Program-made: the position numbers and the translations under genes
Shown: piece by piece, positions 14,188-46,304 of the stretch
Position numbering within the stretch: position 1 is the first letter of the stretch
Layout of the letters: each line of letters starts with the position of its first letter
Origin: an uncultured Candidatus Saccharibacteria bacterium
GTDB taxonomy: Bacteria; Patescibacteriota; Minisyncoccia; Phycocordibacterales; UBA9973
Assembly (NCBI GenBank): GCA_964520225.1
Contig: CAZFNV010000005.1
Coordinates: 1-56,999 of the forward strand
Direction of reading: 5' to 3'
DNA: 56,999 nt
Notes under the pieces: generated by a model
Seen by the model: the letters and a program-made list of their open reading frames with translations, nothing else
What the model was told of the DNA's origin: nothing
Database searches by the model: none

Positions 14188-14271
14188 CTGATTTTACCCT
14201 GTAGTGAAACTTTTGCAAAGCTCCGTATTAAAAAAATTCTCCAGAAACGAAAGACACTGTGATTGTTTATA

Positions 14272-14607
14272 TCAAAGTTTATACAAATATTCTTTTATCC
14301 TATCTTTATCTTCATTTTCTTTTTCTCCTTTGAAATATACCTCTATGTACATAAATTTAATACTATTATTATGATACGCATAAATAAGACGGATTACTCG
14401 TGACCTTAATGATTCACAATGGACTCGTACTTTTATGATCGTTGTGTCACCTTCAATTTTAATTATAGTAAAATTCTTGCCGATTCCTGTAGGGCATTCA
14501 AGTAACACAGGCTTTATATCATCAATATCAGATAACAGTGTAGGATATTTCCTGGAAAGTTTTTTGAGTTCTTTTTCAAACTCAGGAAGCATAGAAAAAG
14601 TACTCAT
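14272..14607 (-). CDS. RelE/ParE-superfamily-like toxin (candidate PanT)
   Basis: 111 aa; FEKELKKLSRKYP...IIKVRVHCESLRSRVIRLIYAYH...IEVYFKGEKEN is the RelE/HigB-like pattern. It lies 5 nt downstream of the antitoxin gene. Confidence 0.5.
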   Translation of the reverse strand: MSTFSMLPEFEKELKKLSRKYPTLLSDIDDIKPVLLECPTGIGKNFTIIKIEGDTTIIKVRVHCESLRSRVIRLIYAYHNNSIKFMYIEVYFKGEKENEDKDRIKEYLYKL

Positions 14608-14612
14608 AGGAG

Positions 14613-15338
14613 TTAGTTGTCAGATACAGAAGTTTCGTCAGGGCGATAAAACACGTGTCTATAATTAAGTTCTTGCTTATCTTTTGCCACCCTCCAAGGT
14701 GTATCTTTGTGTGATAACTCAGACAATTCCTTCGCAGATTTTGAAGCCAAGCGAACAAGTTCGTCGTCAATATGTTTCAATTCTTGTGCAGACAACAAAG
14801 AAACATCTGGCTCTGATGTTACAAGATATTTCTTCTGATCATAATTAAAATGCTTGCTATTGACCTCAACCAGCTCACCCTCACTCTCCAAATCTCGAGC
14901 AATCTTCGCAAATGAAACCGGTGTAGGACCATACGTATTCCTAATATATTTTGCACCAATCAAATACCTTTGATATTTTTCATAATAATCAAAGTCTATA
15001 AAATAAAGGAGTTTATATAATGCGGTTTGCCCTATGTTTGGACGACTACCCACTTTACTAACAACATATAATAAAACTTGCTTGAAACGTTCAGTATTTT
15101 CTTTTGGAATTTCTTTTGGTTTAATTTCAAAATTCGTCTCCATATGAATATTTTCTTTCTCCGCTGTTTCTTTAGAAACACCGAAAATACTCGCCAAAAG
15201 CGCCTTTTGTTCTTCGGTTGGTTTGGACTCACCTTTTTCAAGCTTTATATACGTAGGACGAGAAATACCTAAAATCTTGGCGACTTCTGCTTGAGAAATA
15301 CCCGCCAATTTACGCTTTGTTTGTATCCAATTAGACAT
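14613..15338 (-). CDS. XRE-type HTH fused to a Panacea (DUF4065) antitoxin domain
   Basis: The N-terminal LAGISQAEVAKILGISRPTYIKLEKGE is the HTH. GQTALYKLLYFIDFDYYEKYQRYLIGAKYIRNTYGPTP is the DUF4065 signature. Confidence 0.75.
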   Translation of the reverse strand: MSNWIQTKRKLAGISQAEVAKILGISRPTYIKLEKGESKPTEEQKALLASIFGVSKETAEKENIHMETNFEIKPKEIPKENTERFKQVLLYVVSKVGSRPNIGQTALYKLLYFIDFDYYEKYQRYLIGAKYIRNTYGPTPVSFAKIARDLESEGELVEVNSKHFNYDQKKYLVTSEPDVSLLSAQELKHIDDELVRLASKSAKELSELSHKDTPWRVAKDKQELNYRHVFYRPDETSVSDN

Positions 15339-15549: not shown

Positions 15550-15628
15550 CCCCCGCCTCAAAAATTTTCCGCCGAAAATTTTTAGGTGCAGTTTGCCTGC
15601 TTCTCCCATCCCGCCTACGGCGTGCTGG
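15550..15628. repeat. Repeat copy A: CCCCCG + A/T hairpin block, then a 41-bp block
   Basis: 15588-15628 (gcagtttgcctgcttctcccatcccgcctacggcgtgctgg) is identical 41/41 to 19187-19227. The hairpin block ctcAAAAATTTTCCGcCGAAAATTTTT is shared with 19084-19110 apart from one base. Confidence 0.85.
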
Positions 15629-15749
15629 CCTTGTGGCGCGAAGTTGGAACAATTGTAAGCCAATATCAAACATATGTCCATAAATAAACCAATTAAAAAA
15701 ACGGTCTGATTTTGTTGTATTTTTCCAGAAAAAGTATAATATCAACTAT

Positions 15750-16862
15750 ATGGAAAAGATCGAAAATACCACCACCTTACTTGACCCAATAAAGATCAAC
15801 TACTTCCACCCCGATAGCCTTCTTTTGGATGCTGAAAATCCTCGTTTTGCCGGCTTAATTGACTCAAAGGTTAGCAACAACGAACTCCTGAAAAAGCTCC
15901 GTAAGGAGATGTATTTGGACGAATTAATTGATTCTTTTCGAGAAAATGGTTATTACAATACCGAACCGCTTCTTGCCATAAAATCTAATAAGGATCCTAA
16001 AAAATTTATCATCATCGAAGGCAATAGAAGGCTCGCTGCTATTAAGTTGCTTTTGACTGACGAATTTAAAGGTAAAGTTGATAAGAAAATCATAAAGCAA
16101 CTTTCGACAGAAATTCCTGTTGCCGTATATCCAAGCAGAAAAACACTCTGGACTTATCTAGGTTTTAGACACATCAATGGGCCTAAAGAGTGGGATTCAT
16201 ACAGTAAAGCTGTATATGCACTGACGGTTCATGTTGAATATAAAATTCCCATAAAAGATATCGCTGACAAAATCGGCGACAAAAATCAAACTGTTGTAAA
16301 AATGTGTAATGGATTGAGATTATTACAACAAGCTGAAAAACAAGGTTATTTTTCTTCTGAAGATGTTGACTTAAAACGTTTTTATTTTTCTCACTTATAC
16401 ACTATTATTCAGAAAAATAACACTAAGAGTTTTTTAGGGCTTCCATCAAAGACGAATGAAGTATTCAAGGCAAATCCTGTATCCAAAAGTAAAATAAAAA
16501 ATTTACAACTTCTCTTAAACTTATTGTTTGGTAGCAAGGATGGTTCCGTAAAACCGGTTATTAAATCACAGAACCCAGATTTAAGAAACTTAGATGAAAT
16601 TATTGGAAATAAAAAAGCTTTAAAGTATCTTACTGAAAACAAGACAGAAAGTAATGTATTGGATAATGCTCTTAGTTTCACTGGAAGTGAAGAATCGGTC
16701 TTGGAAAGCCTTATGTTTAAATCTTTAAACACTCTAAGAAAAGCTAGCGGTATGCTATATAGTTACAAGGGGGATGATGAAACTTACAAAGAAGCCAAGG
16801 AAATAGAAACTGTTGCTAACTATATAGTTGCTCAGATGGAAATAAAGCGGAAGAAAAAATAA
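15750..16862 (+). CDS. ParB/Sulfiredoxin N-terminal-domain protein
   Basis: 370 aa; LLDAENPRF ... FIIIEGNRRLAAIKLL is the ParB-type GxRR box. TTGTTG-N17-TATAAT lies 9 nt upstream of the ATG. Confidence 0.6.
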   Translation: MEKIENTTTLLDPIKINYFHPDSLLLDAENPRFAGLIDSKVSNNELLKKLRKEMYLDELIDSFRENGYYNTEPLLAIKSNKDPKKFIIIEGNRRLAAIKLLLTDEFKGKVDKKIIKQLSTEIPVAVYPSRKTLWTYLGFRHINGPKEWDSYSKAVYALTVHVEYKIPIKDIADKIGDKNQTVVKMCNGLRLLQQAEKQGYFSSEDVDLKRFYFSHLYTIIQKNNTKSFLGLPSKTNEVFKANPVSKSKIKNLQLLLNLLFGSKDGSVKPVIKSQNPDLRNLDEIIGNKKALKYLTENKTESNVLDNALSFTGSEESVLESLMFKSLNTLRKASGMLYSYKGDDETYKEAKEIETVANYIVAQMEIKRKKK

Positions 16863-16863
16863 G

Positions 16864-17769
16864 ATGGCTGTTTTCATAGATTTACCTAAAATTCGTCAGA
16901 ATAATAAATTACAACTTTCTGACTGGATGGAAATAAGTGCTCTACTGGATAATTCCGATAATTCTTCCAGCCTTGAAGAGCTTATATCTCTTCTTAAGGT
17001 TTCTACTGATGATTCTGATGAGATCAGAGCGGATGTTTCTGCAGAGTTAATTTCTAGAACAAAAAAGCTTTCTACTGCATACCCTTTTTCGTTCAATGGA
17101 ATTATCCTCAAAGTAAAAAACCCTAAAGACTTTAGCAATCAATGGGCTTACATATTTTGTTTACTCATTTCTTATTTTGGTGTGAACAAGGGAGATTTAG
17201 GACTCTCACTCTGGAAACAAAAAGATGTTACTTCTTTATTTGAACACATTTCCACCATAGCAGCCAAACACTTTCTTTCCTCAAGTGAACATGAGGCAAA
17301 AGAGTTGAAATTTGGTTTTCCCAGAGATAGTTTAGATAAGAAATATAAATCTTTTAAAGCAGCACTAGAACTTTTAAAAAATGTAATTCAAGAAGGTACT
17401 CTTACTACTAATCCCAGCTATAGAAATCAAAAGGATGCTGGTCTTGATATTGTCGTCTGGAGAAATTTCCCTGATGGAAAAACAAATAAACTTTTACTAC
17501 TTGGTCAGTGTGCGGCTGGTAATGATTTTAAACAGAAAAGAAAAGATATACAAAAAATCGAAGGATTTTTCACTTTTCTCACAACCCCAATTAAAGGATT
17601 TTTTATTCCTCACGAGTTAGATGATGAAATATGGGGAGAACTTAGCTTTGATAGTTACATAGGAATTATATTTGATCGTAGTCGTATTGCATCTTACGCA
17701 AAAGCGTGGAATGGGCAAGGTTTTATATCGAATTTTGAGGCCATAAAGAACAAACTGAGGAAAAAATAA
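16864..17769 (+). CDS. Hypothetical protein, possible degenerate PD-(D/E)xK (Mrr-like) nuclease core
   Basis: 301 aa. It starts after a 1-nt gap from the ParB-like gene. DAGLDIVVW...LLLLGQCAAGNDFKQK resembles a D...QxK core, but the Lys position is Ala. Confidence 0.3.
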   Translation: MAVFIDLPKIRQNNKLQLSDWMEISALLDNSDNSSSLEELISLLKVSTDDSDEIRADVSAELISRTKKLSTAYPFSFNGIILKVKNPKDFSNQWAYIFCLLISYFGVNKGDLGLSLWKQKDVTSLFEHISTIAAKHFLSSSEHEAKELKFGFPRDSLDKKYKSFKAALELLKNVIQEGTLTTNPSYRNQKDAGLDIVVWRNFPDGKTNKLLLLGQCAAGNDFKQKRKDIQKIEGFFTFLTTPIKGFFIPHELDDEIWGELSFDSYIGIIFDRSRIASYAKAWNGQGFISNFEAIKNKLRKK

Positions 17770-17823
17770 TTGGCTGGCAATGGGTTGTGGCCATTTATAA
17801 TCTAATATGTTAAAATAAGCTTA

Positions 17824-18669
17824 ATGATTTATTCACCTCTGCGATATCCTGGAGGAAAAAATAAAGTCTCGAAGTTTATTCAAGATGAGGTTTTTAATGT
17901 TAACGATTTAAAGGGTGGTGTATATGTTGAGCCATACGCTGGAGGTGCTTCTGTTGCGTTAAATCTTTTGATAGAAAAAAAAGTATCAAAAATAATAATT
18001 AACGACTACGATAGATCGGTTTACGCTTTTTGGTATTCTGTTTTGAATGATACAGATGCATTTTGTGAAAAAATTAAAAAAGCACCCATTACAATAAAGA
18101 ATTGGAAAAAACAAAAAGAGGTACAAAAGCATAAAAAACAAGCTTCTCTTTTTGATCTTGGCTTTTCGACTTTTTTCTTAAATCGTACGAACCGATCAGG
18201 AGTGATCTCTGCTGGACCAATAGGTGGACTAAATCAGAAAGATAAGTGGAAAATTAATGCTAGGTTTAATAAAAAAAATCTTATTGAACGAATTAGATTA
18301 ATTGCTCAGCATAAAAATAATATAAAAATATATCAACTAGACGCGGTTAAACTTATTGAAAAGATTTCAAAAAAACTACCCGACAAAACACTTATATACT
18401 TTGATCCTCCTTACTATGTAAAAGGGCAAAAATTATACGTTAACTTTTATACGCATGAAGATCACATCTTAGTCGCAAATGCGGTAAAAGATATTAACGG
18501 TCCTAAGTGGATAGTTTCTTATGACAATGTAAAACCTATTGCTAATCTTTATACCAAATATAGAAAGAGAGTATATGACTTACCGTACAGTGTAATAAAT
18601 GGAACTACAGGAAAAGAAGTTATGTTTTTCAGTAAAAATCTAAAAATTAATTCTAAATTTCTTAGTTAA
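17824..18669 (+). CDS. DNA N6-adenine methyltransferase, D12 (Dam) class
   Basis: LRYPGGKNK, EPYAGGASVAL, FFLNRTNRSG and IYFDPPYY motifs. Confidence 0.85.
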   Translation: MIYSPLRYPGGKNKVSKFIQDEVFNVNDLKGGVYVEPYAGGASVALNLLIEKKVSKIIINDYDRSVYAFWYSVLNDTDAFCEKIKKAPITIKNWKKQKEVQKHKKQASLFDLGFSTFFLNRTNRSGVISAGPIGGLNQKDKWKINARFNKKNLIERIRLIAQHKNNIKIYQLDAVKLIEKISKKLPDKTLIYFDPPYYVKGQKLYVNFYTHEDHILVANAVKDINGPKWIVSYDNVKPIANLYTKYRKRVYDLPYSVINGTTGKEVMFFSKNLKINSKFLS

Positions 18670-18986
18670 TAGATGATACTTTTTTTAGCTACTTCTTTAA
18701 TTGCGTTAGCAATTTTTTCTAAATGAGTTTCGATTAACTGATTTGTAATTGATAGAGTATGGCATTTACTTTGGTCGGAATAATAAACACGGTTAAAGTC
18801 AAAAATAATTTGGAGTGGATTCGTGTAATGTTGTAAACCGTTAACTTCTATGTTCATAGGAACATCAGGGAGAAAAATATCTACATGCTTGTGCCCATCC
18901 CAGTATTCAAGCTGAGTTTTAATTCCTCGCTTATTTAATTCTTCAGCGAGTTTGAGAGTTTGTTTAGTTGAAATTATTTTTGGCAT
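18666..18986 (-). CDS. DUF559/Vsr-like small endonuclease-fold protein
   Basis: 106 aa; HVDIFLPDVPMNIEVNGLQH follows the DUF559 pattern (vDf...l.iEvDG..H). It overlaps the Dam gene's 3' end by 4 nt, convergently. Confidence 0.45.
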   Translation of the reverse strand: MPKIISTKQTLKLAEELNKRGIKTQLEYWDGHKHVDIFLPDVPMNIEVNGLQHYTNPLQIIFDFNRVYYSDQSKCHTLSITNQLIETHLEKIANAIKEVAKKSIIY

Positions 18987-19076
18987 AGACGCAAAAAGCC
19001 CATCACGGGTAGAGACCGAAGTCTCTCGTATTCGTTTCTAGATCTTGCTGGAACCCCAGGGCCCGCTCCGCATTCT

Positions 19077-19227
19077 CCCCCGTCTCAAAAATTTTCCGTC
19101 GAAAATTTTTGGACTGGGCACCTGCTCGTGGATTTTTATTGCTATAAAAATCACACTCCGCCGTTCTCGTCCTAGTCGCAGGCAAAGCAGTTTGCCTGCT
19201 TCTCCCATCCCGCCTACGGCGTGCTGG
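19077..19227. repeat. Repeat copy B: the same two blocks as copy A, split by a 76-nt GC-rich insert with extra hairpins
   Basis: 19077-19110 matches 15550-15583. 19187-19227 is identical to 15588-15628. The insert contains GTGGATTTTTAttgcTATAAAAATCAC and the palindrome gcaggcaaaGCAGtttgcctgc. Confidence 0.85.
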
Positions 19228-19281
19228 GTGTCTGGGATTGTATCCGAACGGAATTGTTGATAAATAAGGTTTAAAACTACT

Positions 19282-20385
19282 TTATACTCCAGACTTAGTT
19301 CGATTATCTTGTTTACATAACATCTGGCAATTTTCGGCTATAGTTTTTCCTCCTTCGTGCCATGGATTGATATGATCAGCTTCCATTTCTCCAATTGCAA
19401 ATTCCTTTTTACACACAGGACAAATACCATTTTGTCGTTCGTATGCTTCTCGCTTCATATTTGGTGTAAACGCTCGAATAGAGAGATATCTTTCTTTTCT
19501 AGTAAGCACATAAGGATAAATACCAGATTTTTTTGTTACATCTTCATTTTGCATTAATTCTTTAATTTCTTTTTCTAATTTTTTTGAATCAAGTTTTTTA
19601 TCCTTAAATGCATTGTAAAGTTCACCCCAATTTACACTAGACATCTCTTTTCTATAATTTGGAAAAGTTTCCCGCACCCAATGAATTACATTTTGAAAAT
19701 ATTTCCATAATGCGTCTGCGTTTTTATCATGCTGATGTTTTGCCATATAATCTTCTATCTTTTCATTATTTATCCACGATAAAGCAGTTTCTAGGTATTC
19801 TTGTCGAATAGGAGAACCTGTTATTAATTGTCCACCATCATTTGATAGTAAATATGCCACACAATTTGATTTACTAAATTTCAATTTTGCATCAGAAAGC
19901 CATGGGCCAGTATATACGGCATTTCTTAATTCTTGGTCAGTTAGTTTTTCACCAGCAATATTAATAATTTTAAACCAGTCAAGTTTTTCCTTATCGTTTC
20001 CTTCACAATGGTAAATCATAAGATCATAATTCATAATCTGATTTTGTTCTTCTTTGGTTAAATTATGAAACATTGCTATTCGTCCATTAAATTCAATAGA
20101 AAAATCTCCATTTACATATTGAGCGATACTGATTGTTCGTTGTTGTCCATCAAGCACTTCAAAATTACCATCTTCTTTCTTAACCCAATACATAACATTA
20201 AGCGGAAAACCATTTTTGATAGTATTTATCACTTCATCTCGTTGTTTTCCGCTATATACAAACTCTCTTTGGTATTTTGGGCGAATATCTAACTTACCAC
20301 CAAAAGCAGATACGCCTTCCTCGGCACTATCTTTATAGTTCTTAATAACTTCTGAAATTTTTATTTTATGTAAATTTATTTCCAT
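19282..20385 (-). CDS. DUF262 (ParB-like, GmrSD N-domain) fused to an HNH nuclease
   Basis: IRPKYQREFVY...FEVLDGQQRTISI is the DUF262 DGQQR box. The C-terminal CPVCKKEF...EADHINPWHEGGKTIAENCQMLCKQDNRTKS is the HNH. Confidence 0.8.
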   Translation of the reverse strand: MEINLHKIKISEVIKNYKDSAEEGVSAFGGKLDIRPKYQREFVYSGKQRDEVINTIKNGFPLNVMYWVKKEDGNFEVLDGQQRTISIAQYVNGDFSIEFNGRIAMFHNLTKEEQNQIMNYDLMIYHCEGNDKEKLDWFKIINIAGEKLTDQELRNAVYTGPWLSDAKLKFSKSNCVAYLLSNDGGQLITGSPIRQEYLETALSWINNEKIEDYMAKHQHDKNADALWKYFQNVIHWVRETFPNYRKEMSSVNWGELYNAFKDKKLDSKKLEKEIKELMQNEDVTKKSGIYPYVLTRKERYLSIRAFTPNMKREAYERQNGICPVCKKEFAIGEMEADHINPWHEGGKTIAENCQMLCKQDNRTKSGV

Positions 20386-20386
20386 A

Positions 20387-21556
20387 TTATTTTTGTGGTT
20401 TTTTATTTTTAATTAAAATTCTCATATAAACAACTTTTAATTCGCCATTTACATTAACAACTGGACCCCTATTAAGGTCATTATAATTTTTCGCATCTTC
20501 TATTGTATAAGTTTTTGTTCTTACACCTTCAGAGTTTTGTCTATCTGCTATCCAAATTATTTCAAACTGATCTGGGTTATATTTATCAAGAAAAGTAATT
20601 GGTACACCAATAACACCCTCATAATCCATTGGAATATCTGAAACTTTATTTACATTTATCGCTTCGTAGTTATCATACTTCGGATATTCTTTTGATGAAT
20701 ATTTTTTATAAAAAACCAAGTTTTCATGTCGCTTACCCGTATCAAGATTTGTATACCAATTTACTGCTGGAACTTTAACATACCCATCATTCGGGTTATA
20801 GCCTTTCCCTTTAACAAATTGCTTGTTGGCTTCAAGATCATTACTATAAGGAGTTTTATATACCATTGACATATTGAAACCATAACCAGACCATAATTTA
20901 TTTTCTTTTATCAATCTAAAAACTTCTTTATATGTAATTGCGTTCATATTTCCTAAAATTAAAAACTTCTTATTATATTCAATTAATTGAGCAACGTATT
21001 CTCTAAACAATGAAAATGGAGGATTGGTTACCACAATATCTGCTTGTTTTAAAAGCTCAACACTTTCTGGACTTCGAAAGTCTCCATCACCTTCCATTGG
21101 TGACCATTCGTTATTTTTATTTGATTTAAGTTGTTCAGCAATATCTCGCAAATCAAAAGCTCCATCGCCATCGAGATCATGAACTTCATTTATAATAAAT
21201 TTATTAGCATTCACTTTTGGGCGACCTTTTGGCGTACTAAGTGTTTTATTGTCACCAAATAATCCTAGTTGAGTATTAGCAATCGGTGATGGCTTGTAAC
21301 TCGTAGCGATAAGTTTCTTCAAACCTAAAGCATTAAAATTTGAGGCAAAATATTTAAAAAAATTACTTTCAAAAGGATCATCACAATTGCAATATACTAC
21401 CTTATTGCGAAACTGATCTTTGTAATGTTTTAACTCTTTTTCAATATCAACAAGCTGGGTATAAAACTCATCTTTTTTTGCTTGGTTAGCTTTGTGTAAG
21501 TTTTTGTTTGAAGATTTACTTTTCGTATTTTTAGCCATAAACCTATTATAACTCAA
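20387..21556 (-). CDS. N6-adenine DNA methyltransferase, M.EcoRI family
   Basis: As I recall M.EcoRI, the match runs along the length: KKDEFYTQLVDIEKEL, VVYCNCDDPFESNFFKYF, GDGDFRSPES, IVVTNPPFSLFREY, YPKYDNYEAINVNK, GVPITFLDKYNPDQFEI. Confidence 0.8.
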   Translation of the reverse strand: MSYNRFMAKNTKSKSSNKNLHKANQAKKDEFYTQLVDIEKELKHYKDQFRNKVVYCNCDDPFESNFFKYFASNFNALGLKKLIATSYKPSPIANTQLGLFGDNKTLSTPKGRPKVNANKFIINEVHDLDGDGAFDLRDIAEQLKSNKNNEWSPMEGDGDFRSPESVELLKQADIVVTNPPFSLFREYVAQLIEYNKKFLILGNMNAITYKEVFRLIKENKLWSGYGFNMSMVYKTPYSNDLEANKQFVKGKGYNPNDGYVKVPAVNWYTNLDTGKRHENLVFYKKYSSKEYPKYDNYEAINVNKVSDIPMDYEGVIGVPITFLDKYNPDQFEIIWIADRQNSEGVRTKTYTIEDAKNYNDLNRGPVVNVNGELKVVYMRILIKNKKPQK

Positions 21557-21582
21557 AAGGATATATAAAACTAAAGAAGAAT

Positions 21583-23022
21583 TTATTTATTAATTCCTAA
21601 CGTTTTCTTTGCTTTTTGTATAAAAATACTCATTTCTTTATCGTTTTCATAAGTATCTATAAAATCTTTTAAGATTATACTCCCTTTTTGCTTATCTTTT
21701 TTAAGGTATGTTACGAACCCTTCAATAAATATGAGATAAGGGTAAAAATTGGTTTTTTTTCTTCGCTCAATAAACTCAAAAACAGAATCAATTGATCCTT
21801 TTGACAATGAACCTCTTCTTAAAGCCTCATCATACAATTCAATTCCAGACTGAAATTTTTTATCTCGTTCAATTTTAAGAAATGCCTTACTTAATTTAAA
21901 GGATGCATCTTGTGGGTAGCGAGAAGCTTCTTCTAGGTGAGAATCAACTTTTTGTTCATACCCAGCACCTTTTAGGTAATAGTGGTGTGCTAAACTTAAG
22001 TTAGCATAATAATAATTCGGTTTGAATTCTAATGATTTCTCTTGATATTTTATGGCTTCATCAATATTGCCTTGACTGTAATAAAAACCGCCTATTAAAT
22101 TATTTTCTATTGCTAATAATTCTTTAGTTCTTGATAAGAGAGTTTTAAGATAGTATTCAGTTATACACCTAGGCTCTAATATTTGTAATAATCTTTCATG
22201 GTATTTCATAGCAACACCAACTTGTCCTGATACATATGCGGAAGAACCAAGAGAAAATAATATATTTTCTCTTATATTATCAGTAACTACTTCTAGTGCT
22301 CTCATCTCTTCTGCTACTGGGAAATCCCAAGGTTGAGTAATTAAAAAACTTGTAAATTCTTTACCCAAGTCTTCGCTAGTTTTTATATTGATTGGTTTGT
22401 GTTTTACGACATAATTAGGCTCTAGTTTGTAAAATTCCTTACCACCCTTGGATGATTTTTTTACTGATCCAAATAAAATAAAATTCCATTTTATTTTATC
22501 CATATTGACTTTCCATCTAGATTTTTTAAAGAGAGGATTCCAGAATTTATCTTTTTCCCTAATAATCTTTCTACTTTTATATTCATCCAACGATATAACA
22601 TGGAAAATATCTCCAAATCCTACATTACTAAGTGTGTCATCAATTTCTTTATAAATTTTAAAAATAAAAGATTTTGATTCCTTGTCCTCATATTTATTTG
22701 ATATCCCTATGTATACACCGACTTTATTTTTTGGGGTTTTTGGATATTTTATTTTTTGAAAAATTATTAAAAATAATAATAACCATATTAATGAAATTCC
22801 CCATAAATAAGTAAAGGTAATGTTGCTAGAAATATTACTTTGCAAAAAAATTTTATTTATCGTTACTGCTTCATGAAAAGTGGCTATAAAAGGAATAGAA
22901 AGTATACTTGTAAGTAAAATCACACCTAATGGTTTTTGCCAGTTATCTAAAAGCCATTGTTTTACATAAGTAAAAACAAAATCTTCTGCTTCTTTTTCTG
23001 TTCTCTTAAATATTCCGATCAT
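21583..23022 (-). CDS. Membrane-anchored TPR-repeat protein, function unknown
   Basis: 479 aa with two N-terminal TM segments and an unassigned central domain. The C-terminal repeats are TPR-like (GGFYYSQGNIDEAIKYQEKSLEFKPNYYYANLSLAHHYY). Confidence 0.55.
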   Translation of the reverse strand: MIGIFKRTEKEAEDFVFTYVKQWLLDNWQKPLGVILLTSILSIPFIATFHEAVTINKIFLQSNISSNITFTYLWGISLIWLLLFLIIFQKIKYPKTPKNKVGVYIGISNKYEDKESKSFIFKIYKEIDDTLSNVGFGDIFHVISLDEYKSRKIIREKDKFWNPLFKKSRWKVNMDKIKWNFILFGSVKKSSKGGKEFYKLEPNYVVKHKPINIKTSEDLGKEFTSFLITQPWDFPVAEEMRALEVVTDNIRENILFSLGSSAYVSGQVGVAMKYHERLLQILEPRCITEYYLKTLLSRTKELLAIENNLIGGFYYSQGNIDEAIKYQEKSLEFKPNYYYANLSLAHHYYLKGAGYEQKVDSHLEEASRYPQDASFKLSKAFLKIERDKKFQSGIELYDEALRRGSLSKGSIDSVFEFIERRKKTNFYPYLIFIEGFVTYLKKDKQKGSIILKDFIDTYENDKEMSIFIQKAKKTLGINK

Positions 23023-23051
23023 GTAATAATTTTTACTTTTTTACATTAATT

Positions 23052-24131
23052 TTAATCTTTTTCTTCTTTTTTCTTTTCATTTTTTCTTTCAGCTTTTAAT
23101 TTAAGTTTCATACCAGAAATTTCTAATACTTGAGATGCAGAAATAAATGCGGGATTATTCATCATTTTTAAACCTTCCACAAAACCTTTTGATTGTTCTT
23201 GGGTCGGCTCTCCTTTAACGATAGGATCAAGAAGGGTTTTTGTTATAGAAAATGTGTCATAAAAAAATGAGATGAAAGGATCGTGCCTTGCATCTTTAAA
23301 AGCATCCTCTGTAAAATACTTAACTGCTTCATCAAGACCCAAGAAAAGAATCTTGTCATTGTGATTATTTAAAATCTTAATTCCTTTTTTCTCAAAACTA
23401 GAGATGTAATTGGGTACATTTTGATTAATGTAATTTATGATATACCAACCCCAATCTTCCAATAAAATTTCATTTATTATTCCTGTGTCAGTAATGTAGA
23501 CTTTTTTACTTAACATACTTAAAGTTTTACCCATGTTCGTTTCATTTTCTGGTTCAGAAAAAATTTTAAAAACACCAATAGCCATACAAGTAAGTAATAG
23601 TTTCGGTTGAATGGTATTCAGTTTACTGAATTGTTCTTGAAATTCTTTAACATCTTCTTTCGGAATTTTATCTGATATTTCAATCTCGGCTTTAATCACA
23701 TCAATTGTATTATCTAAAATGTCTCCTTGTATAACCATAGTTCCCCAATCTTCTTCGTCTATGATTTTGTGCAATACGCTTTTATAAAGATTGGCAATAA
23801 ATAAATTATTACTTTCATTATCTTTTAAACCAAACTTAACTGCATATCTAGAAAAATTTCTTTCAATATTTTCTTTTTTGATTTGTGGTTCTTTTTTACC
23901 ACACTCACCCCTACAATCTAAATCACAACGATAATTTCTGTCTGAAACTCTAAGATAATGTTTTGATGAAGCAAATCTCAAAACACCCTTTTTAAAGAAG
24001 GGCGGTTTTGTTATTTCGTATGGTATTGTTTTTGGTTCTTTTTTCATTCCGCAAATAATATCCTTATTTTTTAAGGTTTTTGAAATTTTTCCTAAATTTC
24101 CGTCAAACCCCTCTTGGTATCGTATTCGCAT
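23052..24131 (-). CDS. Hypothetical protein (359 aa), Cys cluster near the N-terminus
   Basis: Long clean ORF containing CDLDCRGEC. No family was recognised. The true start may be the ATG at 24047 (MKKEPK), because the ATG at 24131 overlaps the divergent ATG at 24130. Confidence 0.45.
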   Translation of the reverse strand: MRIRYQEGFDGNLGKISKTLKNKDIICGMKKEPKTIPYEITKPPFFKKGVLRFASSKHYLRVSDRNYRCDLDCRGECGKKEPQIKKENIERNFSRYAVKFGLKDNESNNLFIANLYKSVLHKIIDEEDWGTMVIQGDILDNTIDVIKAEIEISDKIPKEDVKEFQEQFSKLNTIQPKLLLTCMAIGVFKIFSEPENETNMGKTLSMLSKKVYITDTGIINEILLEDWGWYIINYINQNVPNYISSFEKKGIKILNNHNDKILFLGLDEAVKYFTEDAFKDARHDPFISFFYDTFSITKTLLDPIVKGEPTQEQSKGFVEGLKMMNNPAFISASQVLEISGMKLKLKAERKNEKKKEEKD

Positions 24132-24275
24132 GTTATCGTTTAGTCAATTATTAGTCGAACGTATCCAAAAGTATTTCAAAAGGAAATATAACTTGGATAT
24201 TTCTGATGAAACAGCAAATGAATACCTGCATACGTTGGGCGGTATGTTTGCTGTATTTGCTGAAAGTGAGGGAAA

Positions 24276-24313
24276 GCCCCCGCCCGATTCCCTTTATGGG
24301 GACGGGCGGGGGC
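24276..24313. other. 11-bp GC hairpin, candidate replication origin / nick-site hairpin for the adjacent Rep
   Basis: GCCCCCGCCCG-attccctttatgggga-CGGGCGGGGGC, about 80 nt upstream of the Rep start. It is the only GC-rich patch in this AT-rich stretch. Confidence 0.4.
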
Positions 24314-24391
24314 AACCTCCACGCTCTCCCTGACTTGATAGTTGCCTTATATTAGACGACTAAGAATTATAAGACTTAATACTAAAGTTTT

Positions 24392-25309
24392 ATGGGCTAT
24401 AACAAATTTATTAGAAGTGGTAACCAATTAGAATTATATGAATATGAAAAAGATTTACCAATACGACGAACTCAACGAAAACGAAAGATTTTTCGTGGAC
24501 AATCAGTCGGAACTAGAACCTTCATTGGAAGATCAGAAGAAGGCACAGATACGCTTAGAGAAATTCTTGGCGGAGGAAGGATTCAAGACGAAAGAGAAAC
24601 AATTTCTTCCAGAGAAAGGGATATACATAGTGAGAATATTTCTTCTAGCGGAACAGATACACTTCAACTTCAACAATTTGCACAAAAGAAACAGCAGAAA
24701 CGCAGAGATAACGCACAACGCTCTGGAATGGCTTTTAGAAGAATCGTCTGTTCTAACCTTGAACCAACTGAAAACCCTTTACTCATTACTCTTACCCACA
24801 AAGAAAATCTCGGAGATATTTCCGAAAGCAACAGATTGTTTAAACTTTTTATCCAGCGTGCGAGAATTAAATACGGTAGAACGTTCCGCTACATTGCCGT
24901 ACCGGAATTTCAACGACGTGGTGCTGTTCATTATCACGCTTTGTTCTGGGGGCTACCTATTGAACTATACTATCGAGAACGGCAAACTCGTGAACTTGCT
25001 AACATCTGGGGAAACGGATTTACCGACATTGTTTTAACTGATGGAAATGAAAAACTTTCTTCTTACTTAGCAAAATATATGATTAAAAATTTACAAGATG
25101 AACGTTTATGGAATCAGAAAGTATATTTTTGTTCTCGTAATATTAAACGTCCAGTAATAGTAAGCGGTTTTGAGACTTTTAGGTTTATCGAGAAAGACTA
25201 TAATTTAGAAGCTCTTACTCCCGTTTTGGAGAGAAAATATGATACTCAATGGCTAGGCGAAGGTCGATATAGATTATTTGATGCTTCCAATTTAAAAAAT
25301 TTAGAGTAA
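24392..25309 (+). CDS. rep: HUH rolling-circle replication initiator (Rep_1/pC194-like)
   Basis: Motif 1 LLITLTHKEN, motif 2 GAVHYHALFWG (HUH), motif 3 SSYLAKYMIKN (catalytic Tyr), in the canonical order. Confidence 0.7.
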   Translation: MGYNKFIRSGNQLELYEYEKDLPIRRTQRKRKIFRGQSVGTRTFIGRSEEGTDTLREILGGGRIQDERETISSRERDIHSENISSSGTDTLQLQQFAQKKQQKRRDNAQRSGMAFRRIVCSNLEPTENPLLITLTHKENLGDISESNRLFKLFIQRARIKYGRTFRYIAVPEFQRRGAVHYHALFWGLPIELYYRERQTRELANIWGNGFTDIVLTDGNEKLSSYLAKYMIKNLQDERLWNQKVYFCSRNIKRPVIVSGFETFRFIEKDYNLEALTPVLERKYDTQWLGEGRYRLFDASNLKNLE

Positions 25310-25323
25310 TATCTTTAGTAATT

Positions 25324-26790
25324 ATGAAATACATTATTTACTGCCGAAAATCACAAGAAAACGAAGATAGACAAGTAATGTCTTTGGAATCTCAAGAATC
25401 TGAAATGTTGCAAATTGCTAAGAAAAATAATTTGGAAGTTTTAGAAATTCTCCACGAAAGCAAATCAGCAAAATCTTTAGGTCGTCCCGTTTTTGCTAAA
25501 ATGATGGACACAATTAAAAAAGGAAAAGCTCAAGGAATTATTTGTTGGAAACTTGATCGTCTCGCAAGAAATTTTATTGATGGTGGTTTAATTATTGATT
25601 CTCTACAAAAAGGAATTATTAAAGAAATTCGCACTTATGAATCCGTCCATTTTCCAAATGAAACTGTTTTTCTTTTGGCTATGCAATTCGGAATGGCTAA
25701 TCAGTACAGCCGAGATTTATCTACAAATGTTAAACGCGGAAATCGGGCAAAATTAGAAAAGGGTGAATGGCCTAATCATGTTCCACTTGGATATTTGAAT
25801 GACAAAGCTACTAAGACAGCCAAGATAGATAAAAAGTTTGCCCCGTATGTTGTGCGTGCGTATGAACTATATTTAACTGGTGGTTATACTCTTCCTCAAA
25901 TTTCACAAATTTTATATGACGAAGGTTTAAGAACTAAAACAGGTGGTATGTGTCGCTCGAATCAAATTCATAGATTTTTTATAAATCGTTTTTATTGCGG
26001 AATGATGGAACGAGACGGAAAAGTTTATAACGGAAATCATAAAGCCATTGTTTCTATTTCTCAATTTAATCAAGCTCAAGAAATTTTACATAATAGACAA
26101 CACCCACACCCTAAGAAATATTTTTACTCTGCTCAAGGATTTTTAAAATGTGAAAATTGTGGTTGTTCTTTAACTGTTGATACAAGGAAAGGACATCAAT
26201 ATTATTATTGCACTAACGGCAAAGGTAACTGCGAAGAACATAGATCTTATATGCGATCTGAATATGTAGATGAGATTTTATCTGAAATGTTTAAAGTCCT
26301 TGCATTTGATAAGGAAATTATTGAAATTTCATACCAAGCATATAAAGAGTTAAATATGCAGAAAGCGGACTACGTGGATACCAGTAAAGATAACCTCTTA
26401 AACGAGCTAAATGGGCTTCTAGACAAGGAATCTCTCCTTGTAGATAGTTATACTTCCCAAGTGCTTAGGAAAGAATTATACGAGCAAAAAATGCTTGAGA
26501 TTGATAATAGGCGAACTGAATTAAATAAACAATTGAAAGAAATTGAACTGAAGGGTGCTTTATCTGAATCTACTCTCGAACAGATCAAAAAGGTATTTTT
26601 AGATGGAAATACAGCGTCAGAAAAGTATTTGACGTTAAATGATTATGAAAAGAGAAAGATGCTAGAAAAGTTACTCTCGAACGCAACATTCAAAAGTAAA
26701 AATATTGTTAATTATCAATTCAAAAAGTTGTTTTCTCCTATGGCAAATACACCTAAAAATTGTGATTTGCCGACTCTGCTGGGAGACTAG
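25324..26790 (+). CDS. Large serine recombinase (integrase)
   Basis: The N-terminal resolvase domain is YCRKSQENEDRQVMSLESQ...DRLARN. It is followed by a recombinase domain, a Cys zinc ribbon (CENCGCSL...YYCTNGKGNCEEH) and a coiled-coil tail. Confidence 0.9.
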   Translation: MKYIIYCRKSQENEDRQVMSLESQESEMLQIAKKNNLEVLEILHESKSAKSLGRPVFAKMMDTIKKGKAQGIICWKLDRLARNFIDGGLIIDSLQKGIIKEIRTYESVHFPNETVFLLAMQFGMANQYSRDLSTNVKRGNRAKLEKGEWPNHVPLGYLNDKATKTAKIDKKFAPYVVRAYELYLTGGYTLPQISQILYDEGLRTKTGGMCRSNQIHRFFINRFYCGMMERDGKVYNGNHKAIVSISQFNQAQEILHNRQHPHPKKYFYSAQGFLKCENCGCSLTVDTRKGHQYYYCTNGKGNCEEHRSYMRSEYVDEILSEMFKVLAFDKEIIEISYQAYKELNMQKADYVDTSKDNLLNELNGLLDKESLLVDSYTSQVLRKELYEQKMLEIDNRRTELNKQLKEIELKGALSESTLEQIKKVFLDGNTASEKYLTLNDYEKRKMLEKLLSNATFKSKNIVNYQFKKLFSPMANTPKNCDLPTLLGD

Positions 26791-40274: not shown

Positions 40275-41378
40275 CTAGGCGCTCTGCTTGGTGTGGAGCA
40301 CATAAACCGCAAGCAGTGTGGTTATCGGCACGGTTAAAATAAGCCCGATACTGCCCACCACTGTTCGGATTATTTCCGTGGCAAATATTTCTTGGTTGAT
40401 AATATTACCTATCGAAGTATCGGAGAATTGAAAGAGTAGAAGTATAGGCAGAGCCGCACCAGTGTAAGCCAGAGCGAGAGTGTTGATCAGTGCGCCTATG
40501 TGATCCCGCCCTACACTCAGCGCTTTCTTGTATACATCGGTGCGTGATAAATGTGACGCAGAATCATAGATCTCTCGCACGACGGCGACTTGAGTTACAG
40601 CTATGTCGTCAAGTACACCCAAGACTCCGATCATCATCCCACCGAGCAGAAGCCCTGTGAAGTCTAGAGCCCCCTGTGTGCTCAAATTCAGATAAAAAGC
40701 TTCTTCGCTTATAAGGCCACTGAGCCGAGCAAGCCCAACACCAGCATACGCCAACACCCCGGTCATACACACTGCAACCGTTGTCCCCAGAAAAGCAACA
40801 GTAGTAGTTCGGCTGAAACCATGCGACAAATAAATAGCTAAAAATAAAATTACTATCGAAACGAGAATGCTAGTAGCAACTGGTGGGTAGCCGGCGAGTA
40901 ACCCAGGAATAAGGACGTACAGAATTACAAAAAAGCTACCGAATAGAGCGAGTAACGACCGCAGACCTTGCGCACCAGAGAAAATCAAAACAACTACAAT
41001 AAAAAGGCCGATGAAAAATAAAATCACCGACAAACGATCAACGTCTTTCACCGCATACACCTCCCTACCACTGAAAATATCGACACTATGATAAAGGAAA
41101 AATTTATCTCCCGCTTCGAGCGCTACATAGTCATTCTCCATCTCTACCACTTCCCCATTCCGCTCACCCTCAATTATCCGGACAGAGATAGTTTGGGAAC
41201 TGTGCTCTATATCTGTGCCTGGTATATTGCCTTTCGTCTCATTTAGAACCTCGAGCACCTCGGCCCGCAGTATTTCCACCTTGTCTGGCACGATCTCCTG
41301 CGCCAGAGAAAAAGCTGGCACAAAAAATAGAGCCAAAAAATATGCAATAAGAAATTTGCCGAAAAATTTAATTACCAT
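40275..41378 (-). CDS. YibE/F family membrane protein
   Basis: An N-terminal extracytoplasmic domain followed by about 7 TM segments. The ATG at 41378 is preferred over the TTG at 41393. Confidence 0.6.
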   Translation of the reverse strand: MVIKFFGKFLIAYFLALFFVPAFSLAQEIVPDKVEILRAEVLEVLNETKGNIPGTDIEHSSQTISVRIIEGERNGEVVEMENDYVALEAGDKFFLYHSVDIFSGREVYAVKDVDRLSVILFFIGLFIVVVLIFSGAQGLRSLLALFGSFFVILYVLIPGLLAGYPPVATSILVSIVILFLAIYLSHGFSRTTTVAFLGTTVAVCMTGVLAYAGVGLARLSGLISEEAFYLNLSTQGALDFTGLLLGGMMIGVLGVLDDIAVTQVAVVREIYDSASHLSRTDVYKKALSVGRDHIGALINTLALAYTGAALPILLLFQFSDTSIGNIINQEIFATEIIRTVVGSIGLILTVPITTLLAVYVLHTKQSA

Positions 41379-41407
41379 AATATTCACCCGCAACCTAAAC
41401 AGAAAAT

Positions 41408-41770
41408 TTATTTCTGGGATTTGTAGAAATAGTACAAAGCAAGAGGCGCAGCCCAGTTAGCAAATCTTTCGATGAAGTCCCATATTGGCATGCCCACTAG
41501 TGGCCTTACAAGAGCTGTCCAAAAACCCCAAAAAGCCATCCACAATAGAACAGGTCTTACTGGCTTAACTAAGACTAAAACTGCTAATAAAATATCCACT
41601 ACCCCAACCGCTAATATAAAAGTTGTAGCTGTTGCGGTATCGAGCCCAGTCAGTTGTTCAACCCATCTTATCCAATCAGCTTTCCCTAAAAGAGCGAAAA
41701 CTCCATGTCCTAAAAACTCGCCAGCAACACCAATTCTCAAAACCCATTCTAATTTTTTTGAATTAGTCAT
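41408..41770 (-). CDS. Small membrane protein (DoxX-like)
   Basis: 120 aa with four TM segments. Confidence 0.45.
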   Translation of the reverse strand: MTNSKKLEWVLRIGVAGEFLGHGVFALLGKADWIRWVEQLTGLDTATATTFILAVGVVDILLAVLVLVKPVRPVLLWMAFWGFWTALVRPLVGMPIWDFIERFANWAAPLALYYFYKSQK

Positions 41771-41868
41771 AAAAATAAATAATTAATAATTCCTATTAAT
41801 TATACTACTTTTTATTAAACTACCTAGCGCGACTTAGTGGATGGTGTTAGAACTAGTTTAATCCCCAC

Positions 41869-42294
41869 TTAGCGTACTTCTCCCAGGAAACGGTTATAAG
41901 TCTCTTGTTTATAAATATTTTGCTCCCCCTGTTCTTTTTGATATTCCGCATCATAAAAATAAAAAAAGGTTTCAGAAAAGATACTCTCGTTTGTAACAGC
42001 ATCAAAGATTACTTTTGTAATAGTATAACCATTACCAGCTGGATTACTCTCATATCCATTCCAAAGAACAACGCAACTACCTCTTTTTTTACTATAAAAA
42101 ATTTCATCGGGGTAAACATTGTCTATATCCCCGCTTGTGTAATAAGTACGTATACGCTCTGATGCTTGATTTTTAAATTCAGCACAGAATGCATTATTTT
42201 TTAATGAAGCACCCGAGAAAAACAATAAGAATACATTTAGGGATAGAGAAATAACGAGGACAATTGGCAACGAATCCCATAGTTTTTTATTCAT
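41869..42294 (-). CDS. Hypothetical anchored protein
   Basis: 141 aa with an N-terminal TM segment, in AT-rich DNA. Confidence 0.45.
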   Translation of the reverse strand: MNKKLWDSLPIVLVISLSLNVFLLFFSGASLKNNAFCAEFKNQASERIRTYYTSGDIDNVYPDEIFYSKKRGSCVVLWNGYESNPAGNGYTITKVIFDAVTNESIFSETFFYFYDAEYQKEQGEQNIYKQETYNRFLGEVR

Positions 42295-42485
42295 AGTTAG
42301 AGTTTAACAGACGGGGGTCATCAAGTCGAGTTTTCCAACGTTATAGAGATATGACATTTTCGCACATACTAAATGGTTAAAAACGTTAATAAACGGCAGA
42401 AATCATGGAAAATGGTGGATGACTCCCCTGATAAACAGGGCAATCACAGGGGATGGTCTAGGCTGAAGAACAGCATAGATAACAG

Positions 42486-42632
42486 CTAGGGCTTCTTTTT
42501 TATCACATCAAAATAATCTTCCAAAGAAAACTCTGCGAACTCATATAAGTAAGTCCTAATTTCTTCAATTTCCTTATCGGAATACTTTTCGCCACCACTC
42601 AACAATTCCCTACATTTATTGATCGATATCAT
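42486..42632 (-). CDS. Small ORF (48 aa), hypothetical
   Basis: MISINKCRELLSGGEKYSDKEIEEIRTYLYEFAEFSLEDYFDVIKKKP. It shows weak resemblance to the ORF at 24130-24333. Confidence 0.2.
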   Translation of the reverse strand: MISINKCRELLSGGEKYSDKEIEEIRTYLYEFAEFSLEDYFDVIKKKP

Positions 42633-42717
42633 GCTGTTTTATCAGTATGTTAATCTTCATATCCATATTTTCCAACATACTCAGGGTATTTTTTCTCGAA
42701 TTGACTCTCAAGTCAAA

Positions 42718-43380
42718 CTATTGTGCCTCTGGAAACATACTTTCAGGACTATCTGTTGATAAAACATTTCGAACTATCAGCACAGCCCAAACCTCTTCAG
42801 ATTGTTCGAAACCCTCGTTATCTTTGTTTTTATAGTAATTTTGAATCTCTTCTTTAAATACGCGGTCAATATACTCAATTATACGTTCCTTTTGGGAACC
42901 AGATAAACTAACTGCCCCGTTTCCACTTTGCCACACTGACGATACAGCTGCTCCTAATATTTTCTCTCTTCCTTCTTTTAATTTTACGATAAATCTACCC
43001 ACTCCTTGATCTGTGGGATGTTCAATGATACTAAAAAGGGATTCGTTAGCCGCCTTAAGATCTGATAAGCCTATATTAAACTCTTCAACACTTTCTTTGA
43101 TGTAGTCTCGAGTGTTGCCACCCCAACTTCCTATAATTCGTGATGCATTATCGATATGCTCCTTCATGGAATATGCCCCTTCATAATAGTTATCGGTAGA
43201 GATAATATTAGTCTCCCTAGTAGCACTAATCTCATTTAATACTTTAATTACATCAAAAACGAACTTCTCGTTTTCTGCTCGCCTTGAACTAATAGTAGAA
43301 AAGTAGATTCCACCAATAATTAACAACAAGATTAGCGGACCAGATATTCTGGAATACGTTTTAAAATTAAAATTATTCAT
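42718..43380 (-). CDS. Hypothetical anchored protein
   Basis: 220 aa with an N-terminal TM segment, in AT-rich DNA. Confidence 0.45.
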   Translation of the reverse strand: MNNFNFKTYSRISGPLILLLIIGGIYFSTISSRRAENEKFVFDVIKVLNEISATRETNIISTDNYYEGAYSMKEHIDNASRIIGSWGGNTRDYIKESVEEFNIGLSDLKAANESLFSIIEHPTDQGVGRFIVKLKEGREKILGAAVSSVWQSGNGAVSLSGSQKERIIEYIDRVFKEEIQNYYKNKDNEGFEQSEEVWAVLIVRNVLSTDSPESMFPEAQ

Positions 43381-43428
43381 AATGTCTGTCTTTTAAAAAA
43401 CTTTTTAACCTCTATTAATTAAGCAAAT

Positions 43429-43938: not shown

Positions 43939-43950
43939 TATTATGTATCT

Positions 43951-45082: not shown

Positions 45083-45214
45083 TTAACGCCCCGAGAAACA
45101 AGAATAAAATTACTACTCAAACATATTGAAATTCTACAATAAAATGTTAGAATTGGCTAGTAAGAGTGTTTATAAATAAAAAGGCATAGCCAAAGCTATC
45201 CCTTTTTTCCTCTG

Positions 45215-46148: not shown

Positions 46149-46202
46149 ACTTATATTATACCTCGTGACAGGACAATATACTAACCACTATAATAGAATA
46201 TA

Positions 46203-46278
46203 TGGTGTCGGCGGGAAGACTTGCACTTCCGACACTGGGCTTATGAGTCCCATGCTCTACTACCTGAGCTACGCCGAC
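46203..46278 (-). tRNA. tRNA with CAU anticodon (elongator Met or Ile2), CCA encoded
   Basis: Reverse complement is GTCGGCG TA GCTC AGGTAGTA GAGC A TGGGA CTCATAA GCCCA GTGTC GGAAG TGCAAGT CTTCC CGCCGAC A CCA. The T-loop is unusual (UGCAAGU) and there is an A31/G39 mismatch. Confidence 0.75.
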
Positions 46279-46304
46279 ATAAAGCAAACTGCTTTACTTT
46301 ATTA

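Follow-up and report, generated by a model that had tools for sequence, protein, structure and literature searches.

Islands at the 3' ends of tRNA and transfer-messenger RNA (tmRNA) genes can grow by tandem accretion, and Ccr large serine recombinases assemble arrays of the staphylococcal cassette chromosome (SCC) type at the 3' end of rlmH. The attachment (att) sites of large serine recombinases are about 40-50 bp long and have a central crossover dinucleotide. Here we describe a locus of an uncultured Candidatus Saccharibacteria bacterium that has traits of both systems. The window, i.e. the whole stretch of DNA that was analyzed, comprises 56,999 nucleotides (assembly GCA_964520225.1, contig CAZFNV010000005.1). 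It contains a 41-bp direct repeat, and its two 41-mers are recognizable as the tail ends of two copies (A and B) of a formerly unannotated family of structured elements of about 190 nt. With moderate confidence, we propose that the repeats are the reiterated junctions of an integration hot spot at a tRNA-Gln gene, and the remains of two element copies specific for this tRNA.

As in the islands at tRNA and tmRNA genes, a low-GC stretch (about 14.2-26.8 kb, GC 0.27-0.37 compared with about 0.44 outside) ends at an intact tRNA-Gln gene, a recombinase gene abuts and overlaps the 3' end of this tRNA, and sequence apparently derived from the tRNA 3' end is found at internal and distal borders. The island features found are an intact tRNA at the boundary, an adjoining recombinase gene, and deviant GC together with accessory cargo, which here consists of restriction-modification (R-M), PD-lambda-5-like defence and toxin-antitoxin genes. 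The locus differs from these islands in that the exact tRNA-derived repeat is just 6 bp long, the 41-bp repeat being mostly the tail of the structured element, and in that it encodes a large serine recombinase, not a tyrosine integrase.

The overall picture resembles a variant of tRNA-targeted island accretion and is, by analogy, most like the stacking of SCC-type cassettes by Ccr serine recombinases. In both cases, a large serine recombinase is present, the 3' end of a conserved gene carries a stack of cassettes with short direct repeats between them, and one cassette has no recombinase gene. In contrast to SCC arrays, the target is a tRNA, a 190-nt structured element lies between the cassettes, and the NCBIfam scores are far below cutoff (the best matches of the recombinase, CcrA/CcrC/XisF, are weak, with 77 bits vs. 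a cutoff of 700). Mobility of the present cassettes is putative.

A scan of the window detected the exact 41-mer, GCAGTTTGCCTGCTTCTCCCATCCCGCCTACGGCGTGCTGG, twice on the plus strand, 3599 bp apart (Table 1), confirming the perfect direct repeat that the initial annotation had reported at both positions. No third copy was found in the window with up to 3 mismatches allowed, and none appeared in 100 shuffles. A 34-mer, CCCCCG(C/T)CTCAAAAATTTTCCG(C/T)CGAAAATTTTT, precedes each 41-mer (15550-15583 and 19077-19110). The two 34-mers are 94% identical, in agreement with the conserved A/T hairpin noted there before. The gap between 34-mer and 41-mer measures 4 nt in copy A and 76 nt in copy B, a net difference of 72 nt. 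Both copies are, as also noted before, GC-rich patches (about 0.65 in 60-nt windows) within DNA of about 31% GC.

Among the Logan assembly contigs of run SRR15237813, one ends at 15617 and another (L002; L numbers designate individual contigs and loci) spans exactly 15599-19216. The contigs break just where a 41-bp repeat must split a k=31 graph, indicating that the repeat is real in an independent assembly; the breaks carry no information about cassette polymorphism. Exact-protein look-ups returned only contigs from one sample, which break at both the repeat and the tRNA. Exact searches with the 41-mer or its sub-strings gave no match in GTDB genomes, IMG/VR and JGI metagenomes, and BLAST searches of phage and plasmid collections with copy B gave chance 33-nt matches or none.

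Relatives of the whole element were found with hairpin patterns. Pattern CAAAAATTTTCCGNCGAAAATTTTT matched one Saccharibacteria metagenome-assembled genome (MAG), and the shorter pattern AAAATTTTCCGNCGAAAATTTT matched 43 metagenome contigs and, with the T fixed in the loop, 24 GTDB contigs. No match to the hairpin pattern was found in viral contigs. Six chance matches aside, the flanks align with copy B far beyond the hairpin, giving about 60 true homologues. The named genomes that carry the element all belong to Patescibacteria (Saccharibacteria, Paceibacterota, Zambryski-, Taylor- and Nomurabacteria, Minisyncoccia, Parcubacteria). Several copies per MAG occur in other genomes, and at L009 at least five lie in one 4-kb stretch, some of them in tandem. 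Tandem arrays at tRNAs are present at L009, L012 and L030.

The fold consists of a long hairpin, P2, with an A/T stem and a CGUC loop at its tip, and a second hairpin, P3, which is flanked by the conserved strings GCUCG and CUCCGYYGUUCGA. Strong covariation was indicated by RNAalifold and by pair counting: 93% of cells were paired, compared with 66% in shuffles and about 50% with slid partners, and 25 of the 27 modelled pairs had changes on both sides. The alignment takes in copies with different P2 sequences and was fitted to the model, so that the pairing figures are somewhat inflated. A covariance model, R1, was built from 28 members and finds further copies with variant hairpins. A cmscan-type check, advised by the initial annotation, detected no Rfam 15 family at the element (gathering score for the window, E<=10 for 18900-19350, E<=1 for 8 homologous loci). 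The element is widespread and strongly covarying, is not in Rfam, and one full-text search of the literature turned up no account of it.

The element is accompanied by a tRNA or tmRNA gene in 28 of 39 metagenome loci and in most genome loci. This gene is on the opposite strand, and its 3' end faces the element, within a few hundred and usually 100-150 nt past P2. Across the loci, these neighbours are of 15 tRNA amino-acid types or tmRNA. Immediately 5' of P2, the element carries the reverse complement of the 3' end of the neighbouring tRNA, covering the flank and the 3' strands of acceptor and T-stem, of which 9-22 nt match exactly. Downstream of P3 come, in sense orientation, the T-loop and T-stem 3' strand, followed by a GC hairpin and by the acceptor 3' strand with the discriminator base; this arm often continues into a palindromic terminator that it shares with the tRNA. 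Aligned with their own tRNA, the two arms had mean scores of 12.7 and 11.0; with other tRNAs, the means were 6.1 and 6.4. The arms exceeded the 95th percentile of mismatched pairs in 24 and 22 of 31 loci, respectively. Since both arms copy the 3' end of the neighbouring tRNA, the element folded on itself is predicted to close with a duplex that copies the acceptor and T stems.

A body that is not a tRNA, closed by an acceptor-plus-T-stem helix identical to that of a real tRNA, is reminiscent of tRNA-like domains such as that of tmRNA and the viral tRNA-like structures. In the present family, however, the mimicked tRNA changes from copy to copy, and in the window as in the scanned loci, neither ARAGORN nor the Rfam tRNA and tmRNA models made a call over the element core. 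We therefore rejected a tRNA or tmRNA identity of the element. No elements were found beside the other tRNAs of the window, i.e. tRNA-Thr (two genes) and tRNA-Met (two genes).

On copy B, model R1 scores over its full length (98.5 bits, E 4.8e-26, 19071-19188), and copy B as a whole, at about 19046-19227, is a near-complete element. On copy A, the model finds P2 only (26 bits, 15556-15587, model positions 12-43). The initial annotation had taken the additional sequence in copy B for a 76-nt insert. The B layout is seen across the approximately 60 homologues and is hence ancestral; it is copy A that carries an internal deletion. The 72 nt lost from copy A comprise P3, the junction strands, the T-loop copy and the 5' half of the GC hairpin, and its 5' arm is gone as well. 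Thus, the earlier idea of two copies of a structured RNA gene applies to copy B as a near-complete member of a covarying family, not to copy A, which is a gutted remnant, and the fold may act as RNA or as single-stranded DNA. The two copies do not differ in the 41-mer (0/41) and differ at 5 of about 38 positions in the P2 region. These include one compensatory pair, read from the sequence as the change of the basal P2 stem between GCC/GGU in copy A and GUC/GAC in copy B.

The 41-mer begins at the first base of the loop of the GC hairpin, which is also present in L006, L013, L021, L027 and L058. Its string TCTCCCA is a sense copy of the acceptor 3' strand of tRNA-Gln. The 3' arm of copy B reads GTTCTCGTCCTAGTC [GCAGGCAAA-GCAG-TTTGCCTGC] T TCTCCCA and the 3' end of tRNA-Gln reads GTTCGAGTCCTAGTC TCCCAGCA, matching at 13/15 and 7/7 positions. 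The 41-mer combines the 3' tail of the element with the first 6 nt of the antisense tRNA-Gln tip, which marks it, on our reading, as an old boundary between element and tRNA. On the other side of copy B, 19046-19076 may tentatively be assigned as a decayed 5' arm.

These 6 nt, TGCTGG, are the antisense of the last acceptor bases, the discriminator base and the first trailer bases of tRNA-Gln. They occur at 15623, 19046 and 19222 as well as at the live tRNA-Gln (26777-26782), and the copy at 19046-19051 stands directly left of the decayed 5' arm of copy B. From left to right, the order is remnant A, TGCTGG, cassette E2, TGCTGG, element B, TGCTGG, element E1, TGCTGG and tRNA-Gln.

Occupied and unoccupied versions of this arrangement were found elsewhere. 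In three loci of other species (L033, L049, L047), the element abuts tRNA-Gln with nothing between them. L065 has the same layout of element and tRNA-Gln; here, GCTG is followed, two bases into the acceptor, by a 1.3-kb insert, which has 15-bp terminal inverted repeats. In L014/L043, an insert is located two bases into a tRNA-Ser-like acceptor. The left end of E2, CCTTGTGGCG-CGAAGTTGGAAC, has a motif common to inserts at tRNA 3' ends in other Patescibacteria: GCTGG-N10-CGAAGTTGGAAC recurs with the same spacing in L014/L043 and L065, and also in L071 and L073, two loci that had been fetched for an unrelated reason. The position of the motif is that of the T-loop (TCGAAC) in the tRNA itself, and it looks as if an arm of the incoming element had imitated the target.

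In L071 (9393-9425) and L073 (minus strand, around 5960), the motif takes the form GCTGG-N10-13-CGA..T.GAAC, and no structured element is adjacent. No tRNA-Gln was detected near the motif in L073. The two sites may be fossil junctions left by inserts of this type.

The history that we propose builds on what we count as established, namely the family, its fold, the tRNA-matched arms, the gene content and the positions of TGCTGG. In the uninterrupted state, an element would abut the 3' tip of tRNA-Gln, and the boundary between them would serve as a recurrent insertion site for circular DNA. Mobile DNA would have inserted at this boundary at least twice. E2, a PD-lambda-5-like defence cassette without recombinase, would be an older or non-autonomous occupant, and E1, which still abuts the live tRNA-Gln, the most recent one. 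The two 41-mers would then be reiterated left arms of a single hot spot in a tandemly accreted island, with the element kept whole in copy B, and with the 5' arm and 72 internal nt missing from copy A. We infer that insertion was site-specific at TGCTGG, probably by serine recombinases, and likewise infer the enzyme and the order of events.

Junctions similar to attL and attR had been among the suggestions of the initial annotation. This agrees with TGCTGG at the cassette edge and at the live tRNA, and with a recombinase stop codon inside the tRNA; it does not extend to the repeat itself, which is an element tail and not a dedicated att core. The accompanying suggestion of a hot spot for cassette exchange is plausible. 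Homologous recombination between the 41-bp repeats could presumably delete the cassette. The deletion would join the HNH and methylase genes to the toxin-antitoxin genes, as had been pointed out, and this is a statement about geometry, not an observation. If the proposed history is true, the repeat is the visible seam of defence-cassette stacking at one tRNA in the ultra-small genomes of Patescibacteria. The element could then also guide annotators of MAGs, in which contig breaks are frequent, to integration hot spots.

Several results weigh against the proposed history. The exact tRNA-derived border repeat is merely 6 bp long, and TGCTGG occurs 36 times in the window. Its presence at 19046 may be due to chance (about 1% coincidence for that position), and the sequence that follows the copies of TGCTGG is tRNA-like but decayed. 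In line with this decay, the 5' arm of copy B has an alignment score of 8, below the 95th percentile of mismatched controls. The ends of E1 and E2 showed no detectable likeness, and no recombinase remnant was found in E2. No recombinase family was found to recur beside cargo-free element copies. A cassette-free relative was not found; the relatives that the right-flank gene led to have 55-74% identity and no synteny. Finally, 0/41 differences in the 41-mer vs. 5/~38 in P2 can be explained equally well by independent insertions, by recent gene conversion and by homologous (Campbell-type) integration.

The rival that survives best is, in our view, still rather unlikely. It assumes that a circle with the cassette and its own element copy recombined with the resident copy in a Campbell-type event, by homology or at some site within the element, duplicating the shared segment to either side, and that copy A later lost 72 nt and its 5' arm. 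Perfect identity over 41 bp, with sharp borders at the deletion endpoint and at the cassette edge, speaks for it, as does the fact that copy B, including the 5' arm, is found where the cassette ends on the right. The neighbouring E1 encodes a rolling-circle Rep, which makes circular and single-stranded forms plausible in this island. On the other hand, no circular or extrachromosomal copy was found, with 0 matches in viral contigs, phages and plasmids, and the 5 differences in P2, with a compensatory pair among them, are more than one recent event predicts.

Quite unlikely, to our judgment, is that the element itself is the recombination site, a folded single-stranded att-like site comparable to the attC of integrons, at which a recombinase acting in trans captures and exchanges the cassettes that it bounds beside the tRNA. 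The element has in common with integron attC and with attP of phage CTX a structure that is conserved while the sequence varies (here, the fold is kept under covariation), a position between cassettes in arrays, and folded arms that form a duplex mimic of the target. Tandem arrays at tRNAs and the bracketing of cargo by elements in the window fit such a site, and so does the predicted pairing of the outer arms, which would recreate the acceptor and T-stem duplex of the tRNA. The wobble counts in the stems are balanced (G.U 25, A.C 24) and do not favour RNA over DNA. The locus departs from integrons in that IntI or Xer context is missing, most element copies are cargo-free, and the arms copy the neighbouring tRNA. 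The island open reading frames (ORFs) include no IntI or tyrosine recombinase, and GTTRRRY was found neither in the 41-mer nor at the element borders. In view of the missing IntI and GTTRRRY core, we rejected identity with integron attC. A folded site also fits poorly with the prevalence of cargo-free copies that have no recombinase nearby, with the need of serine recombinases for duplex sites, and with the L071 site, which has the same left-end motif and no element beside it.

We consider it highly unlikely that the element, as a gene for a host small RNA or as a structured tRNA trailer, was locally duplicated and lies beside the cassette incidentally. This explanation draws on the slot between tRNA-Leu(tag) and tRNA-Lys(ctt), which the element fills in divergent lineages with compensatory changes (L007 vs. 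L011). The unpaired bases are purine-rich on the tRNA-sense strand, which is the minus strand of the window, and this strand folds more stably in 38/40 cores. Its fold preference may only reflect G-richness. An early U.G/G.U signal at one pair had suggested a strand call, which was dropped as the signal vanished in the wider alignment. Contrary to what would be expected of a small-RNA gene, copy A is without most of the fold, and terminator-like palindromes on both sides leave no room for an external promoter (L017, L042). Moreover, such a gene leaves unexplained why TGCTGG is the exact end of both copies and why foreign low-GC DNA follows it.

The conserved 3' end of a duplicated protein-coding gene, an alternative raised by the initial annotation, or a small ORF can be dismissed as extremely improbable: minus-strand ORFs of 56 and 76 aa do cover B and A, and the 72-nt length difference is in frame, but changes are compensatory in stems and not at third codon positions, P3 does not vary in length by multiples of three, and the palindrome opens frames on both strands by construction, to which alone the likeness of the six-frame translations on both strands is due.

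Returning to the hot-spot history, the role of the element itself may be considered separately. Occupation of the same slot between tRNA-Leu and tRNA-Lys in divergent lineages suggests long vertical retention under selection on the fold, and mobility is suggested by the tandem arrays and the variety of tRNA partners. No serine recombinase or Rep homologue is encoded near the cargo-free copies, and no recurrent neighbour family was found except housekeeping genes and an occasional LAGLIDADG ORF. As a tentative possibility, we suggest a new class of structured, (semi-)mobile element of Patescibacteria that mimics tRNA ends. It would consist of the conserved, branched P2/P3 core and 'programmable' arms copying the 3' end of any tRNA or tmRNA next to it, and, folded as RNA or single-stranded DNA, it could act as a portable landing pad or decoy for tRNA-integrating elements, thereby organizing arrays of defence cassettes.

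Repetitive extragenic palindromic (REP) sequences with their mosaic elements (BIMEs) and miniature inverted-repeat transposable elements (MITEs) are similar in being multi-copy, intergenic, palindromic, terminator-adjacent and clustered in tandem, with no transposase in cis. The present element is much larger, has a branched fold, is tied to tRNA and tmRNA 3' ends, and has arms fitted to each tRNA. There are 2 copies in the window and up to 5 or more in 4 kb elsewhere, and the arms are inverted tRNA copies. The initial annotation had held that occurrence at many unrelated loci would point to a generic REP or MITE. This condition applies in part: the 41-mer is unique, while the element family is multi-copy and widespread, and its likeness to REP and MITE repeats is limited to general traits.

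Table 1. Coordinates of the element copies, cassettes and genes in the window.
Feature	Positions	Strand	Description or evidence
Copy A, fragment 1	15550-15587	+	P2 hairpin AAAAATTTTC-CGCC-GAAAATTTTT, basal stem GCC/GGU; no 5' arm
Copy A, fragment 2 (41-mer A)	15588-15628	+	GC-hairpin loop and 3' half, TCTCCCA, palindrome CCCGCC-TAC-GGCG, TGCTGG (15623-15628)
Cassette E2	15629-19045		PD-lambda-5-like, bracketed by TGCTGG, without recombinase gene
ParB-like protein	15750-16862	+	PADLOC PD-Lambda-5_A / PDC-M38A, 6.8e-17 and 1.2e-20
301-aa protein	16864-17769	+	Between ParB-like and methylase genes
Dam-type N6-adenine DNA methyltransferase	17824-18669	+	PF02086 8.9e-23; PADLOC PD-Lambda-5_B 1.5e-120
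Small 106-aa ORF ('DUF559' of the initial annotation)	18666-18986	-	ORF list
Copy B, putative 5' arm	19046-19076	+	TGCTGG and degenerate antisense tRNA-Gln 3' end, TGCTGGAACCCCAGGGCCCG vs. TGCTGGGAGACTAGGACTCG in the tRNA
Copy B, core	19071-19188	+	P2 19087-19110, junction GGACUGGGCACCUGCUCG, P3 ~19131-19152, CUCCGCCG, T-loop/T-stem copy GTTCTCGTCCTAGTC 19163-19177
GC hairpin of copy B	19178-19199	+	GCAGGCAAA-GCAG-TTTGCCTGC, between T-stem copy and acceptor copy
41-mer B	19187-19227	+	Hairpin loop and 3' half 19187-19199, T 19200, TCTCCCA 19201-19207, TCCCGCCTACGGCG 19208-19221, TGCTGG 19222-19227
Element E1, 7.5 kb	19228-26776		Pfam, PADLOC, NCBIfam; GC 0.27-0.37 vs. ~0.44 in flanks
GmrSD_N-HNH	19282-20385	-	Pfam; PADLOC REase_II
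EcoRI-like methylase	20387-21556	-	Pfam; PADLOC MTase_II
TPR protein	21583-23022	-	Pfam
Unassigned ORF	23052-24131	-	E1 gene list
Rolling-circle Rep	24392-25309	+	Pfam
Large serine recombinase, 488 aa	25324-26790	+	Resolvase, Recombinase, Zn_ribbon_recom
tRNA-Gln(CTG)	26778-26849	-	ARAGORN; Rfam 60.7 bits

In E2, the gene initially annotated as ParB matches only the PADLOC models given in Table 1 and, weakly, TIGR00180 parB_part (2.5e-8, below the family cutoff); it has no match in Pfam. The 301-aa protein matched nothing in Pfam, PADLOC or NCBIfam, and a D...(E/Q)xK-like motif spotted by eye suggests that it may be a nuclease. For the small ORF previously labelled DUF559, the same three collections gave no family match. 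In E1, the GmrSD_N-HNH and EcoRI-like methylase genes score as a type II R-M pair (PADLOC REase_II 3.9e-136, MTase_II 1.5e-122).

The serine recombinase ORF enters tRNA-Gln by 13 nt. Its last codons and stop are antisense to the tRNA 3' end, with the stop in the T-stem. A Logan contig from the same sample (L077, corresponding to 21425-26850 of the window) begins within the EcoRI-like methylase gene and stops precisely where tRNA-Gln has its 5' end, which suggests strain variants or shared k-mers at both points. To the left of copy A, the low-GC stretch contains an HTH_3 and SocA_Panacea antitoxin-like gene with a 111-aa partner (14272-15338). At the left edge of this pair (14188-14271), no element or tRNA fragment was seen.

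Two further kinds of insert were observed at element copies or tRNA ends. In L009 (600-1960), an IS110-family transposase gene (DEDD_Tnp_IS110 and Transposase_20) lies inside a TTCGA T-loop copy, with TCGA at both junctions, so that element copies can be targets for T-loop-seeking elements. The insert has subterminal inverted repeats (CTATAGAACCCCTG / CAGGGTTCTATGAG), and its non-coding end contains the T-loop-like TTCGAC and ATCGAATCC; these T-loop-like strings could be guide segments. A second, unrelated family of mini-inserts (150-300 nt) was found in L012 (10700-11000), L023 (830-1100) and also L067. Here, the reverse complement of a tRNA 3' end is followed by the insert, ...CCCAATTGGAT...ATCTCAATCGGGC, and then by TTCGAnTCC, and the mini-inserts are in tandem with the element at tRNA-Leu and tRNA-Arg.

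Elsewhere in the window, a second low-GC stretch (41000-46300, GC 0.35-0.38) ends at a tRNA-Met (46203-46278, minus strand), and a free-standing LAGLIDADG_3 ORF (45480-46148, minus strand) lies directly downstream of this tRNA. LAGLIDADG-like ORFs also adjoin the tRNA next to the element in L007, L031, L059 and L062. Insertions of about 60 nt near helix 6 of 16S rRNA are common in Patescibacteria. The 5' end of the 16S rRNA gene at 1-345 of the window (minus strand) also has about 60 nt inserted near helix 6 when compared with the Rfam model of the bacterial small subunit rRNA.

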